Positions 42,379-63,999 of a DNA stretch of 64,000 bases are shown in pieces. Origin of the DNA: Escherichia coli (lineage in GTDB: Bacteria > Pseudomonadota > Gammaproteobacteria > Enterobacterales > Enterobacteriaceae); the NCBI RefSeq assembly GCF_013315695.1, contig NZ_CP054353.1; one strand, 5' to 3'. Under the pieces are notes generated by a model. It saw only the letters and a list, made by a program, of their open reading frames with translations, was not told the DNA's origin and ran no database searches. The translations under genes were made by a program, and so were the position numbers. Numbering within the stretch: position 1 is the first letter of the stretch; each line of letters begins with the position of its first letter.

Positions 42379-42681
42379 ATGCATCCTTGCCCATACTGCG
42401 GAGCAAGCACCCGCACCAGAACAAGCCGCAACGCCAACGACACAGGAACAATCAGGGAGAAATACTATCAGTGCAACAACATTGAATGCAGCGCAACCTT
42501 TGTGACGCACGAGTTTGTCGTGAGAACCGTATGCCGTCCGCAACCCACCGAAGAACGGGGAATCATCCCCACAGACGCTTTCAAATCATGCCACCGGGGA
42601 AGGGAACAACTCAGCCTCCCCCTGGGCGATTGCTCCTCCCAGTCAAAAACTGTACATTACGCGCGGGTGCCTTTCGGCTGA
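42379..42681 (+). CDS. ogr: Ogr/Delta zinc-finger late transcription activator
   Basis: MHPCPYCGASTRTRTSR...YYQCNNIECSATFVTHE compared with P2 Ogr CPLC...YHQCQNVNCSATF. Confidence 0.9.
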   Translation: MHPCPYCGASTRTRTSRNANDTGTIREKYYQCNNIECSATFVTHEFVVRTVCRPQPTEERGIIPTDAFKSCHRGREQLSLPLGDCSSQSKTVHYARVPFG

Positions 42682-61157: not shown

Positions 61158-61330
61158 TGTCAGTTATCATCTTCGGTTACGGTTATCGGCAGAACGCCCT
61201 GCCGCTGACAAGAGCTTATTTGCCTGACCAATCTACTCCACATGATAGATAACTATCATTTATAACATCTCATTGATTAGTCTTTATTTTTCATTGTGTT
61301 ACAAATAACAGCTCTGTCAAAAACAGCGAA

Positions 61331-61727
61331 ATTAACTACACCATTAACTACACCGTTTCACGAACAATATCGAACAACCACGAACAAAGATCAACACGCT
61401 TTAACCGTTATCATTTTCCGGCTATCCGTTATGAAGCTGGTGGATGTTCCCCGATATGGGGATCCCCACCTACCGGAATTTTTGCCAGGTTAAATGTTAA
61501 CCTCTGCCCTGTTAACATTTTTACCAAAAAGGTAGTTAACATTTTTTGCACGCAACCAGATGAATCATAAAGAAAAAATCAACAACAACGCTTCATCAGG
61601 CAGTTAACATGTTAACTACTACGAAACGGTAATTTTTTCTCTGCGTGAGAGGGGGCGCGGTGTCCAGCTTATTCGTTGTTCGTGGCTAACCACTCCCCCC
61701 CCATGCCGGATTTTTTTTCCGGTTAAC
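61331..61727. repeat. Iteron-like field of three short repeat families
   Basis: ATTAACTACACC x2 (61331, 61344). CGAACAA x3 at exact 10-bp phase (61361, 61371, 61381) plus one inverted copy (61676-61682). GTTAAC x6 (61496, 61511, 61535, 61603, 61611, 61722). Confidence 0.8.
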
Positions 61728-61748: not shown

Positions 61749-62037
61749 TTACATACCCTTGATCACCGTAATGATGATCCAGATCTGCACATTTCCACCA
61801 ATGGTGGAAAAGCCCACAGCAGGCCGCCCAGCCTCCACCAATGGGGTAAAAGCATCAACCGTAACGAAAGTCGTTATGGTTGCCACCGATACCCCAAATT
61901 TGGGTATCACGAGTAAGCCCCAAAATCTGGGTGTTACTCTTACCACCCAAACTACGGGTAGTTTCCGTAGTTTCATGGTCGAGTTGCAGATCTGCAACTC
62001 CCCCATTAACCACAGGCGAATTTCCGCCTTCGGTCAT
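61749..62037 (-). pseudogene. Small ORF split by a frameshift (60-aa plus ~38-aa parts)
   Basis: MTEGGNSPVVNGGVADLQLDH...GNHNDFRYG* continues in the +1 frame as VTVDAFTPLVEAGRPAVGFSTIGGNVQIWIIITVIKGM*. It contains the 20-bp palindrome at 61981-62000. Confidence 0.3.
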
Positions 62038-62293: not shown

Positions 62294-62575
62294 TTACCGC
62301 CGCAACCGCTCCGGCTTCTTCCAGTGGTACGTTATTTTCTCCTTCTCCCGATACATCTCCACGCGGCGACGGTAGGCCAGCAACTCAAGAACTCTGGTTC
62401 GTATGTTGCGCATATCCACGCCATTAAGTTCTATACCATCACGGCGCATCACCTCCGCAACAACACGCGCATAATTTTCAGCGGTCACGCTGTCCGGCTG
62501 CGTGGCCTGTTCGTCAACCTGCTGGCTGATTCCGGCAACGCGGCGGATTAATCCCAGTATTTCGGCTTCTGTCAT
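62294..62575 (-). CDS. Hypothetical protein (93 aa) adjacent to cos-1
   Basis: Clean ORF MTEAEILGLIRRVAG...; its start lies 65 nt from the cos-1 cohesive-end sequence. Confidence 0.55.
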   Translation of the reverse strand: MTEAEILGLIRRVAGISQQVDEQATQPDSVTAENYARVVAEVMRRDGIELNGVDMRNIRTRVLELLAYRRRVEMYREKEKITYHWKKPERLRR

Positions 62576-62609
62576 TGTGCCCCCATCGTTCTGATAGTCT
62601 GGTGTCGTC

Positions 62610-62835
62610 GGGTCCTTCCTGGAATTATGGCCCGTTACGGGGCGGCGACCTCGCGGTTTTTCGCTATTTATGAGATTTTTTGAGGGGGTGGTTGTTGTTT
62701 AATTGTTTGGTATATCTAATTGATAAGTAAGGTAAAAATAAAATAAATACAACAACCTTACGATGTATTTTGATGTCATTAATGTGAAAAAATTCAATGA
62801 TATCAAATGGTTTTGTAAAAACACATGGTTGTTGT
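62610..62835 (+). other. Lambda-type cos site 1 (cosQ-cosN-cosB-like)
   Basis: gggtccttcctggaattatggcccgttacg|GGGCGGCGACCT(62640-62651)|cgcggtttttcgctatttatgag, followed by GGTTGTTGT at 62690(+), 62749(-) and 62827(+). Confidence 0.7.
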
Positions 62836-63028
62836 ATCGCGTATTTGATGGCGTAACAGAAAGTGATTTTTAACTTTACCGCTCTGTAACTACGGATTAT
62901 TCCATGCTGGCACGGAGAACGGCTACGGCATGACGCCACCCAGCCTATACAGCACAGTAAAGCCGATAAATTGTTAATCACGCGCAGCAATGCGTGTGAT
63001 TTTTGCACACTTCCGGTTAACGGGTACG

Positions 63029-63206
63029 ATGTCCGGTTTTAGTGTCTGTTTTTTGCGCATGTCCGGTTCATAGAAAGCATGTTTTTATATTTTTCATATG
63101 GTTAACTTGCAGAGAAACCGGACATGGATCCCGGAAAATTTTCATAAATAGTGAAAACGCGCGAGGTCGCCGCCCCGTAACGGGTCCATATGCCGGAAAG
63201 GACCCG
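63029..63206 (-). other. Lambda-type cos site 2 (cosQ-cosN-cosB-like), opposite orientation
   Basis: The minus strand reads cgggtcctttccggcatatggacccgttacg|GGGCGGCGACCT(63175-63164)|cgcgcgttttcactatttatgaaaattttccgg. Then ATGTCCGGTT motifs follow at 63116-63125 (inverted), 63059-63068 and 63029-63038. Confidence 0.75.
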
Positions 63207-63207
63207 T

Positions 63208-63233
63208 AAAAAAAAGCCGGATTTCTCCGGCCT
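63208..63233 (-). terminator. Intrinsic terminator between the 137-aa gene and cos-2
   Basis: The minus strand reads ggccggag-aaa-tccggc plus T8. Confidence 0.7.
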
Positions 63234-63237
63234 TGTC

Positions 63238-63651
63238 TCAGATGGTTTTCAGTATGCGATCGATGTCGCCGTCATCGCCCTGGTTTCTGCCATCGTACGC
63301 CATGCCAGCTGATACGGCTTGCGGGCTGTGCATGTCCATAAAGTTTTCAAAGGCTGCGGTAAGCTCTGGTGCAACCTTTGGGCGCTCCTGCTCTATGGTC
63401 ATGTTCAGGATTTCACGAGCATTATCGACGCTAATACATGGCACGTTTGCCATTGCACGTAACAGCGGCTGATAGTCGTTATGTTCATGAAGCGCCATAA
63501 TCGCATCAGCGCGCGGCTTGTCCTGTTCTTCCAGTTTGTTGAGTTGATATACGGCCTCGTAGGTTGATAAACCTCTGTCAGCCATTGCCCGCGCTTCTGC
63601 TTTAAATTTACTCGCCAGCGGTAGCGCCATGATGCTTTCATTCGTTGCCAT
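63238..63651 (-). CDS. Hypothetical helical protein (137 aa), last gene before cos-2
   Basis: Clean ORF MATNESIMALPLASKFKAEARAMADRGL... No recognisable motif. Confidence 0.6.
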   Translation of the reverse strand: MATNESIMALPLASKFKAEARAMADRGLSTYEAVYQLNKLEEQDKPRADAIMALHEHNDYQPLLRAMANVPCISVDNAREILNMTIEQERPKVAPELTAAFENFMDMHSPQAVSAGMAYDGRNQGDDGDIDRILKTI

Positions 63652-63663
63652 CGTTTCCCCTGC

Positions 63664-63999
63664 TTATCGCGCCAGCGGCTGAACGGATACGCCAGAACCC
63701 GCAAAGGCGGCGCATTTTTTCGCGTCAGTGTCGGCGCTCTCAGGCCAGTTTACGGCGGCGATATTAAATATCCCCGTCTTGTAACACTGTGCTGATTTCT
63801 GCTTTGACGTGTCCACGGGGTACGAAGTCAGATAAACAGCCTTGCCAGATTCCTGACCATCCCACGGCTTAAACTCGCCATTGTCCGCCAGCATCAGCGG
63901 GGTAAATTCCTGAATAACGCCAGCATCAGCGGCAAAATGTACCAGCGTCGTGGATACCTGCTGACTGCCTGCAAATAACTCAATGTATGGAGTGTCCAT
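63664..63999 (-). CDS. Head decoration protein, lambda gpD family
   Basis: 111 aa. TPLML, WDG, YKTGIF, WPE and KK..AFAG blocks align with remembered lambda gpD (TPLML..WDG..YKSGTF..WPE..KKRTAFAG). The start is 1 nt from the window edge. Confidence 0.75.
   Translation of the reverse strand: MDTPYIELFAGSQQVSTTLVHFAADAGVIQEFTPLMLADNGEFKPWDGQESGKAVYLTSYPVDTSKQKSAQCYKTGIFNIAAVNWPESADTDAKKCAAFAGSGVSVQPLAR

Follow-up and report, generated by a model that had tools for sequence, protein, structure and literature searches.

A gene-less cassette with two convergent, phage-type cos sites in an Rpp-less island of the EcCICFT073 family

Why should an Escherichia coli island without any terminase gene carry two lambda-type cos sites that face each other, each with a repeat set of its own? 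The question is raised by the right end of a stretch of 64,000 nucleotides of contig NZ_CP054353.1 (assembly GCF_013315695.1), in the following called the window. An initial annotation, made from the sequence alone, had described the two sites (here cos-1 and cos-2), and its coordinates of the cosN copies, of their flanks, of the 512-bp spacing, of the inward cosB regions and of the repeat motifs all proved to be correct. In our interpretation the locus is the packaging module of a phage-inducible chromosomal island (PICI) that lacks the terminase-redirecting protein Rpp and that probably relies on helpers of two specificities, each of which packages it directly and in its own direction, opposite to that of the other. 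That a single element might be packageable by two helpers or in either direction was one of several options of the initial annotation; we favour it on the basis of cosB copies apparently taken from two phage groups and of the differences between the small terminase subunits (TerS) of these groups.

The 12-nt cohesive-end sequence cosN, GGGCGGCGACCT, is present exactly twice in the window, once on each strand. A search that allowed at most one mismatch found three matches compared to 0.40 expected, a number that none of 100 shuffled sequences reached. Both copies are located inside an inverted repeat of 72 nt with 83% complementarity, the arms of which are separated by 454 nt; the spacing from cosN to cosN amounts to 512 nt (Table 1). 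The resemblance to lambda was confirmed by alignment to NC_001416: both cosN copies agree with lambda in 12 of 12 positions, and GGGTCCT, which we take to be cosQ as defined in the work of the Feiss laboratory, stands exactly 30 nt 5' of cosN at both sites, identical to the spacing in lambda. The 35 nt past cosN that correspond to an I2-like segment (+13 to +47) are 77% (cos-1) and 89% (cos-2) identical to lambda. Each site thus shows the cosN, the cosQ spacing and the I2 segment of a lambda-type cos. Inward of this segment a repeat is found three times, GGTTGTTGT at cos-1 and ATGTCCGGTT at cos-2, and each of the two sets exceeds every shuffle. The arrangement follows the layout of the three R sites in the cosB of lambda and of cosmids; read from cosN on the minus strand, R3 of cos-2 is oriented opposite to R2 and R1. 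The likeness to lambda ends there: past +48 the cosB regions of both sites share 24–30% identity with lambda, which is chance level, no nu1 or A gene follows, and there are two inverted sites.

To which phages do these cosB regions correspond? From cosN up to a point just beyond the third GGTTGTTGT, cos-1 (cosB type T6) shares 97.9% identity over 189 nt with the cos region of a prophage (L008), and its cosB shares 92% over 206 nt with that of a second prophage (L009). In both prophages the start codon of terS follows about 25 nt past R1, and the terL and portal genes are located downstream. For the cosB of cos-2 (type T2), the identity is 97.0% over 135 nt with PhiR12_1, an isolated phage, and 86.7% with the cos of the potB prophage of strain CFT073. 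For both types the homology to the phages extends from cosN to just past R1 and ends upstream of the phage terS/Nu1 gene. Judged from these alignments, each site carries a triple-repeat cosB with 97–98% identity to a phage cosB directly 5' of a phage terS. The assumption that the two motif sets are R3-R2-R1-like TerS-binding sites of different specificities is well supported in this respect, as each cosB appears to be a near-copy of that of a different group of lambdoid phages. The TerS proteins of the T6 and T2 phage groups show no relation in their first ~60 residues, the N-terminal winged-helix DNA-binding domain; from about residue 65 onwards they are nearly identical, and the last 62 amino acids agree to 100%. 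Since they differ only in the DNA-binding domain, they presumably represent two DNA specificities that work with one type of large terminase subunit (TerL). T6-type and T2-type cosBs were each detected in ~4% of the complete genomes (prophages and islands pooled). Indirect hints at a cognate helper in genomes that have the island are three T6 places in strain STEC2018-607, three T2 places in strain S1-CAM-02-A and the match of the potB prophage of CFT073 to cos2.

The element to which the two sites belong became apparent from its surroundings. The window first runs through the E. coli chromosome (cydC, aat, infA, serW, clpA, clpS) and then enters foreign DNA. In strain CEA601S (L001), the closest complete genome (99.8–99.9% identical), this foreign DNA is one island of ~10.95 kb between clpS and cspD with a 17-bp attachment (att) direct repeat at both ends (19830 and 30779 of L001) and an integrase gene at the far end. 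From the integrase end (right to left on the plus strand of the window) the genes code for a tyrosine integrase, a helix-turn-helix (HTH) regulator, an Icd-like protein, a DUF4222 protein, a DUF927 primase, a single-strand DNA-binding protein, PerC, a capsid protein, a gpD-like decoration protein and a 137-aa protein, followed by the two cos sites and a gene for a 93-aa protein; the remaining island genes are annotated as intact. The HTH regulator is of the AlpA type, a primase/replication module is present and the gene order is that of EcCICFT073. The island has no phage tail or lysis genes, and a search for terS and terL found neither gene, be it in the window or in the complete island. The locus is therefore a single EcCICFT073-family PICI of ~10.95 kb integrated between clpS and cspD, and its earlier designation as a cos-type satellite without terminase was right, given the integrase, the att repeats, the gene order and the absence of any TerS or TerL match. 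Two abutting satellites or remnants that each contribute one cos, or an artefact of assembly, had also to be considered; the convergent orientation itself, and nothing further, speaks for these explanations. Both are excluded: a single unit of ~10.95 kb with one integrase and one pair of att repeats is present, the same pair of sites is present inside EcCICFT073 and in 44 of the 86 loci of the survey described below, and the convergent arrangement cannot be a mis-assembly because it recurs in many independent complete genomes, in several of them with identical structure.

Is a head-to-head pair of cos sites new? The initial annotation knew of no described example, but this view has to be abandoned. 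EcCICFT073 (NC_004431, 1377930-1389000) carries a cos1 and a cos2 site, both of which are functional, and transfer is abolished by a double deletion (PMC6092414, PMC6739421). Deletion of cos1 lowers the transfer by lambda and phi80 and deletion of cos2 increases lambda-mediated transfer (PMC6092414), and a cloned cos2, the cosB of which is of the same type as that of cos-2 in the window, enables lambda and phi80 to transfer a plasmid (PMC6092414, PMC6739421). RppA (c1503, 144 aa) binds the TerS of the helper, which is thereby redirected to the cos1 cosB (PMC6739421), and the island is packaged in phage-sized capsids (PMC6092414, PMC6739421). The published model of E. coli cos-PICIs is Rpp-mediated hijacking via cos1 with the role of cos2 left open (PMC6092414, PMC6739421), and the review of Murialdo and Feiss from 2022 treats cos1 only (PMC9026076). 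In the CFT073 genome (L004) the two cosN copies are located at 42559 (+) and 43309 (-), i.e. head-to-head, in an inverted repeat of 77 nt and with rppA between them. According to the sequences in the supplements of the published studies, cos1 is the arm beside the 137-aa gene, here called the a-side, and cos2 is the arm beside the 93-aa gene, the b-side. The inverted orientation is mentioned neither in the main texts of PMC6092414 and PMC6739421 nor in their available supplements. The convergent cos pair is thus a published feature of the EcCICFT073 family and not a new arrangement.

The island of the window and EcCICFT073 share the family, the gene order, the cosQ-cosN arms with the same flanking genes, the head-to-head orientation and the lack of terL, and the cosB of cos-2 is the cosB of the published cos2. 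The difference lies in the inner segment, which in EcCICFT073 comprises 727 bp with rppA and the Rpp-specific cosB (type T3). In the window it comprises 512 bp without any gene, a second phage-type cosB (T6) takes the place of rppA and T3, and the ATGTCCGGTT cosB is found on the opposite arm. T3 has only the first ~36 nt, next to cosN, in common with the compared phages. As far as the literature was checked, the Rpp-less, recurrently inverted 512-bp cassette with two phage-type cosBs is an undescribed variant. The cosB of cos2 of EcCICFT073 has been described as unlike phage cosB (PMC6092414, PMC6739421). We observed that it (L004:43309) matches the cos of the co-resident potB prophage of CFT073 (L004:3534), the TerS of which is identical to that of PhiR12_1; it does not match the icd prophage of the same strain, which has a T5-like cosB.

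When RppA, lambda Nu1, the TerS of a PICI and those of two phages were used as tblastn queries against the whole island and the window, a C-terminal remnant of Rpp was the sole match. Of Rpp and its specific cosB the window contains these 22 codons only, and a T3-type cosB is missing. Because rppA is absent, the Rpp mechanism, in which TerS is redirected and the helper is blocked, cannot operate in this island. Positions 50-315 of the cassette are a 94% identical, inverted match to the b-side half of EcCICFT073, and BLAST comparison shows that two b-side halves are joined head-to-head in the cassette, within the 3' end of rpp, one of the RppA/T2 type (inverted) and one of the RppB/T6-7 type. 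Two open reading frames (ORFs) between the cos sites were rejected as genes. The 114-aa minus-strand ORF at 62664-63008, already suspected not to be a gene, lies across phage cosB DNA; this also applies to a 36-aa plus-strand ORF at 62763-62873, the start codon and residues of which vary in relatives, with GTG for ATG in L007, Cys for Tyr in L006 and two changes in L012.

Table 1 Features of the cos region and its surroundings in the window. Positions refer to the 64,000-nt stretch; strands of single R motifs are those of the window.
Feature	Position	Strand	Remarks
att core repeat AAATTAACTACACCATT	61329..61345	.	Island boundary beside clpS; the island continues rightwards past the window end
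93-aa conserved PICI protein	62294..62575	-	phrog_1561 (E 3e-57), no assigned function; flanks the b-side cos; anchor of the survey
Arm 1 of the inverted repeat	62609..62680	+	cosQ GGGTCCT 62610-62616, cosN 62640-62651, I2-like segment of cos-1
cosB of cos-1, type T6 (GGTTGTTGT)	62652..62841	+	R3 62690-62698 (+), R2 62749-62757 (-, inverted), R1 62827-62835 (+)
rpp remnant, last 22 codons	62879..62944	-	tblastn match to RppA residues 123-144 (73% identity, E 9e-5); in RppB-type islands, the b-side half is collinear with it
End of rpp (last codons, stop codon) with terminator hairpin (~62976-63004)	62945..63019	+	Inherited from an RppA/T2-type island
cosB of cos-2, type T2 (ATGTCCGGTT)	63020..63163	-	R3 63116-63125 (-), R2 63059-63068 (+), R1 63029-63038 (+)
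Arm 2 of the inverted repeat	63135..63206	-	cosQ is the complement of 63199-63205; cosN 63164-63175, I2-like segment of cos-2
Terminator-like hairpin and T-run 3' of the 137-aa gene	63207..63232	-	Unique flank of the a-side cos; kept beside cos1 of EcCICFT073
137-aa PICI protein, scaffold/Nu3-like	63238..63651	-	phrog_1999 (E 4e-64); flanks the a-side cos
gpD-like head decoration protein	63664..63999	-	Pfam HDPD PF02924 (E 1e-17); EcCICFT073 counterpart c1500

How general this organisation is was assessed with the 93-aa gene as anchor in a survey of 86 loci, 80 of them from IMG/VR and the others from genomes; a scan of genome contigs with the 93-aa protein gave one locus. The 44 loci with an inverted cos pair fall into three classes of cassettes. 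In 23 loci the a-side has a T1 cosB and a full-length Nu1-like TerS of the island itself (180 aa, Pfam Phage_Nu1) and the b-side is T4 or T5; in 13 loci a T3 cosB and Rpp (144–146 aa) are found on the a-side and T2 or T7 on the b-side; the remaining 8 loci have the gene-less 512-bp cassette with T2 or T6 on the a-side and T6 or T2 on the b-side. The b-side types are again similar to phages: T5 shares 88% identity over 76 nt with the icd prophage of CFT073, T4 81% over 57 nt with lambda, and T7 80% with L008. Judged from these comparisons, the general design of the family combines one arm that has a satellite-private cos and its specificity protein with another arm whose cos mimics that of a phage; the b-side arm generally carries a copy of a real helper-phage cosB of one of at least four or five specificity types. 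The class represented by the window has phage mimics on both arms. At a query coverage of at least 80% the gene-less cassette was detected in 13 of 5426 complete E. coli genomes; together with its flanks it has the arrangement of the window in 8 genomes and the flipped one in 3. Its length is always exactly 512 bp. It is found at four or more integration sites (clpS|cspD, thiM, tRNA-Pro/yejO, roxA|phoQ) and in islands the backbones of which have different integrases and replication proteins.

The sister PICIs of the first class (e.g. L005, NZ_CP116067) match CEA601S fully in the 93-aa, 137-aa, decoration and capsid proteins and have the same inverted cos arms, but differ by a TerS of their own (Phage_Nu1, E 3e-23), a private T1 cosB and a T4 or T5 phage-type cosB on the other arm. 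In L005 (2831-3373, minus strand) and in 23 IMG/VR loci this Nu1-like TerS, which is 36% identical to lambda Nu1, is located between the cos sites and replaces Rpp. These islands are the basis of a further explanation, namely that the GGTTGTTGT cosB of the window is read by Rpp or by a Nu1-like TerS provided by a co-resident PICI and not by the TerS of a helper. The N-terminal domain of the PICI TerS indeed resembles that of T6-type phage TerS, the T1 cosB (GGTGGTGGTGG) is a relative of T6 with 77% identity over 108 nt, and one genome can harbour two such islands (strain GF4). However, T6 is 98% identical to a cosB directly 5' of a phage terS, and because this near-identical cosB adjoins the phage gene the phage TerS is the simpler reader; T1 and T6 moreover differ in the repeat itself, and no second island is visible in the window. 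A dependence on such a factor in trans is possible, although less economical than recognition by the helper TerS, and we regard it as very unlikely.

Some members of the family deviate at cosN. In L041, L042, L046 and L056 (all IMG/VR) the b-side cos, 5' of the 93-aa gene, is truncated inside cosN (cccgttacgGGGCGGCG, directly followed by gttactcgcc...) and abuts the 3' end of a putative terS-like gene, which is another breakpoint within cosN. At the same place L081, L084 and L088 (IMG/VR) have a different cos-like core (…ccacgGGGCGGGAGCATcgcgg…) instead of a lambda-type cosN, which suggests that these islands are adapted to helpers with another cohesive-end sequence. L033, L034, L036, L037, L050 and L052 (IMG/VR) have single-base variants of cosN on one arm only, e.g. 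GGGCGACGACCT, GGGCGGAGACCT and GGGCGGCGGCCT.

Both orientations of the gene-less cassette occur in nature. Each cosQ arm, a-side or b-side, is always found with its own flanking genes, and T2 and T6 can occur on either arm. When the window is compared to L094 (STEC2018-607), both 300-nt flanks are 99.7% identical in direct orientation and the inner 512 bp are 99.4% identical in inverted orientation. Strain GF4 (NZ_CP172217) has two islands at different sites, L007 and L095, with inner segments that are 100% identical and of opposite orientation. As the two pairs belong to two lineages, the cassettes of which differ by ~2.5–3%, at least two independent flips must have occurred. The switch point lies inside a core of 25 nt, cccgttacgGGGCGGCGACCTcgcg, that is identical in both arms. 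A small T6-like patch just past cosN on the T2 arm of L014 and a b-type cosQ on the a-side arm of L044 suggest that the arms undergo homologous recombination or gene conversion with each other. None of 36 cassettes with rpp or terS was flipped compared to 2 of 8 gene-less ones (hypergeometric p ~0.03), which fits the view that a flip is tolerated only if it turns no gene against its operon. Of the four cosN copies in GF4, three share a G6T variant, GGGCGTCGACCT, and the fourth, beside a frameshifted 93-aa gene, is degenerate (GGGCGTGGAACC); this pattern suggests a sequence exchange between the two islands.

Short segments that are bounded by inverted repeats and found in both orientations are known from the Hin, Gin and Cin systems. 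An invertase switch of this type was rejected: no ORF in the cassette has a match to any family, no recombinase gene adjoins it and the repeats are the cos arms. A serine invertase gene and hix- or gix-type sites are both lacking, and the flip is deduced from a comparison between genomes and not within one population. Recombination at cos is plausible by analogy, since in lambda genetics of the Stahl laboratory terminase cutting at cos reportedly stimulates Red-mediated recombination nearby. A more far-reaching proposal is that the inverted cos pair is itself a helper-driven invertible switch that needs no dedicated recombinase and includes cassette exchange with phages at cosN. Terminase would nick both cosN sites and thereby release the inner 512-bp fragment with two identical left-end 5' overhangs (GGGCGGCGACCT), the outer DNA would retain two right-end overhangs, and the inner fragment could re-anneal either way; cohesive-end chemistry, or recombination stimulated by the cut at cos, might in addition swap cosB cassettes with phages exactly at cosN. 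Such a route is chemically possible and would let satellites re-tune their helper range quickly. We consider this proposal quite unlikely.

We return to direct packaging by two types of helpers, for which the following course can be envisaged. Upon helper induction the island would excise and replicate into concatemers, which would be recognised directly by the helper's own TerS since the island has neither Rpp nor a TerS. The TerS of a T6-type helper would bind to the GGTTGTTGT R sites and place TerL on cosN at 62640, so that packaging proceeds rightwards on the plus strand; a T2-type helper matching ATGTCCGGTT would start at cos-2 (63175) and package leftwards. Packaging would end at the next cosQ-cosN of the same orientation, and the inverted site would be passed over. 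About four island copies per head are expected because the island has ~11 kb and EcCICFT073 uses phage-sized capsids. In the absence of Rpp no block of helper packaging by TerS capture is expected. The cassette would flip, and be exchanged between islands and phages, by recombination in the 25-bp core. The anatomy, the homologies, the absence of rpp and terS and the natural occurrence of both orientations are shown by the sequences; that each site fires with its cognate helper, in which direction packaging runs and how the cassette recombines is inferred.

Several findings weigh against this course of events. Searches of CEA601S revealed no other cos-like place, which means that the helper is not necessarily resident. 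In EcCICFT073 deletion of cos2 improved the transfer by lambda, and a second cos can thus be costly with a non-cognate helper. The rpp remnant indicates that the cassette was born by a gene-destroying rearrangement, and decay looks likewise. The main rival is a decayed module: an ancestral cos1-rpp-cos2 arrangement would have lost rpp and the Rpp-specific cosB, the island would now have little or no mobility, and either or both of the cos sites would be relics. The 22-codon remnant, the join of two b-side halves, the L095 copy with its degenerate b-side cosN and frameshifted neighbour gene and the occurrence in only 13 of the complete genomes are all in line with this explanation. On the other hand, all six R sites, both cosN and both cosQ are intact, as are, by annotation, the other island genes, and the cosBs have kept 97–98% identity to those of phages. 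The cassette has furthermore reached its four or more integration sites on different PICI backbones, a spread that requires continued mobility or selection of the module. We consider decay unlikely for these reasons, and direct packaging of an Rpp-less PICI remains the probable explanation.

If so, the b-side arm would serve as a helper-range module, which is a candidate answer to the question of the role of cos2. With the Rpp module lost and a different phage mimicked by each arm, the window would then represent an extreme case, and such an island should be mobilised by two groups of helpers without interference by TerS capture. The recurrent flips and the exchange of cassettes at cosN also suggest that cos is a hotspot of recombination at which phages and satellites shuffle their packaging specificity, and this may be relevant for predicting which prophages mobilise which islands in pathogenic E. 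coli. Direct packaging by a helper terminase, absence of terS and possession of a copy of the helper cos are also features of cos-type Staphylococcus aureus pathogenicity islands (SaPIbov5, SaPIbov4) and of PICI 11capE. The latter is helper-embedded and shares 258 bp at 90% identity with the cos of its helper (PMC10111431); SaPIbov4 was reported to have two putative cos sites, and the comparison has been drawn in PMC6092414. In contrast to the island of the window these elements are described with one helper specificity, and two phage cosBs on an invertible cassette are not reported in the parts of these sources accessible to us.

Note that the island also contains a small set of genes for capsid assembly, consisting of the scaffold-like 137-aa protein and homologues of capsid protein and gpD. 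Residues 45-119 of the 137-aa protein match the C-terminus of the head maturation protease family phrog_53 (E 7e-10); the 93-aa and 137-aa proteins have no match in Pfam, and PDB sequence searches gave nothing useful. No phenotype was found for c1499 and c1500 in the 2018 study (PMC6092414). Capsid-forming PICIs (cf-PICIs) have the full set of terS, terL, portal, protease and HNH genes; the island of the window lacks that set, and beside its capsid, decoration and scaffold-like genes there is neither a portal nor a terL nor an HNH gene. In Rfam, the segment 61200-64000 has no match above chance level. Between the att core and the 93-aa gene, the segment 61749-62140 contains direct and inverted repeats of short length (TCCACCAATGGNGNAAAAGC twice and a palindrome at 61972-62009) and an annotated hypothetical ORF of 52 aa.

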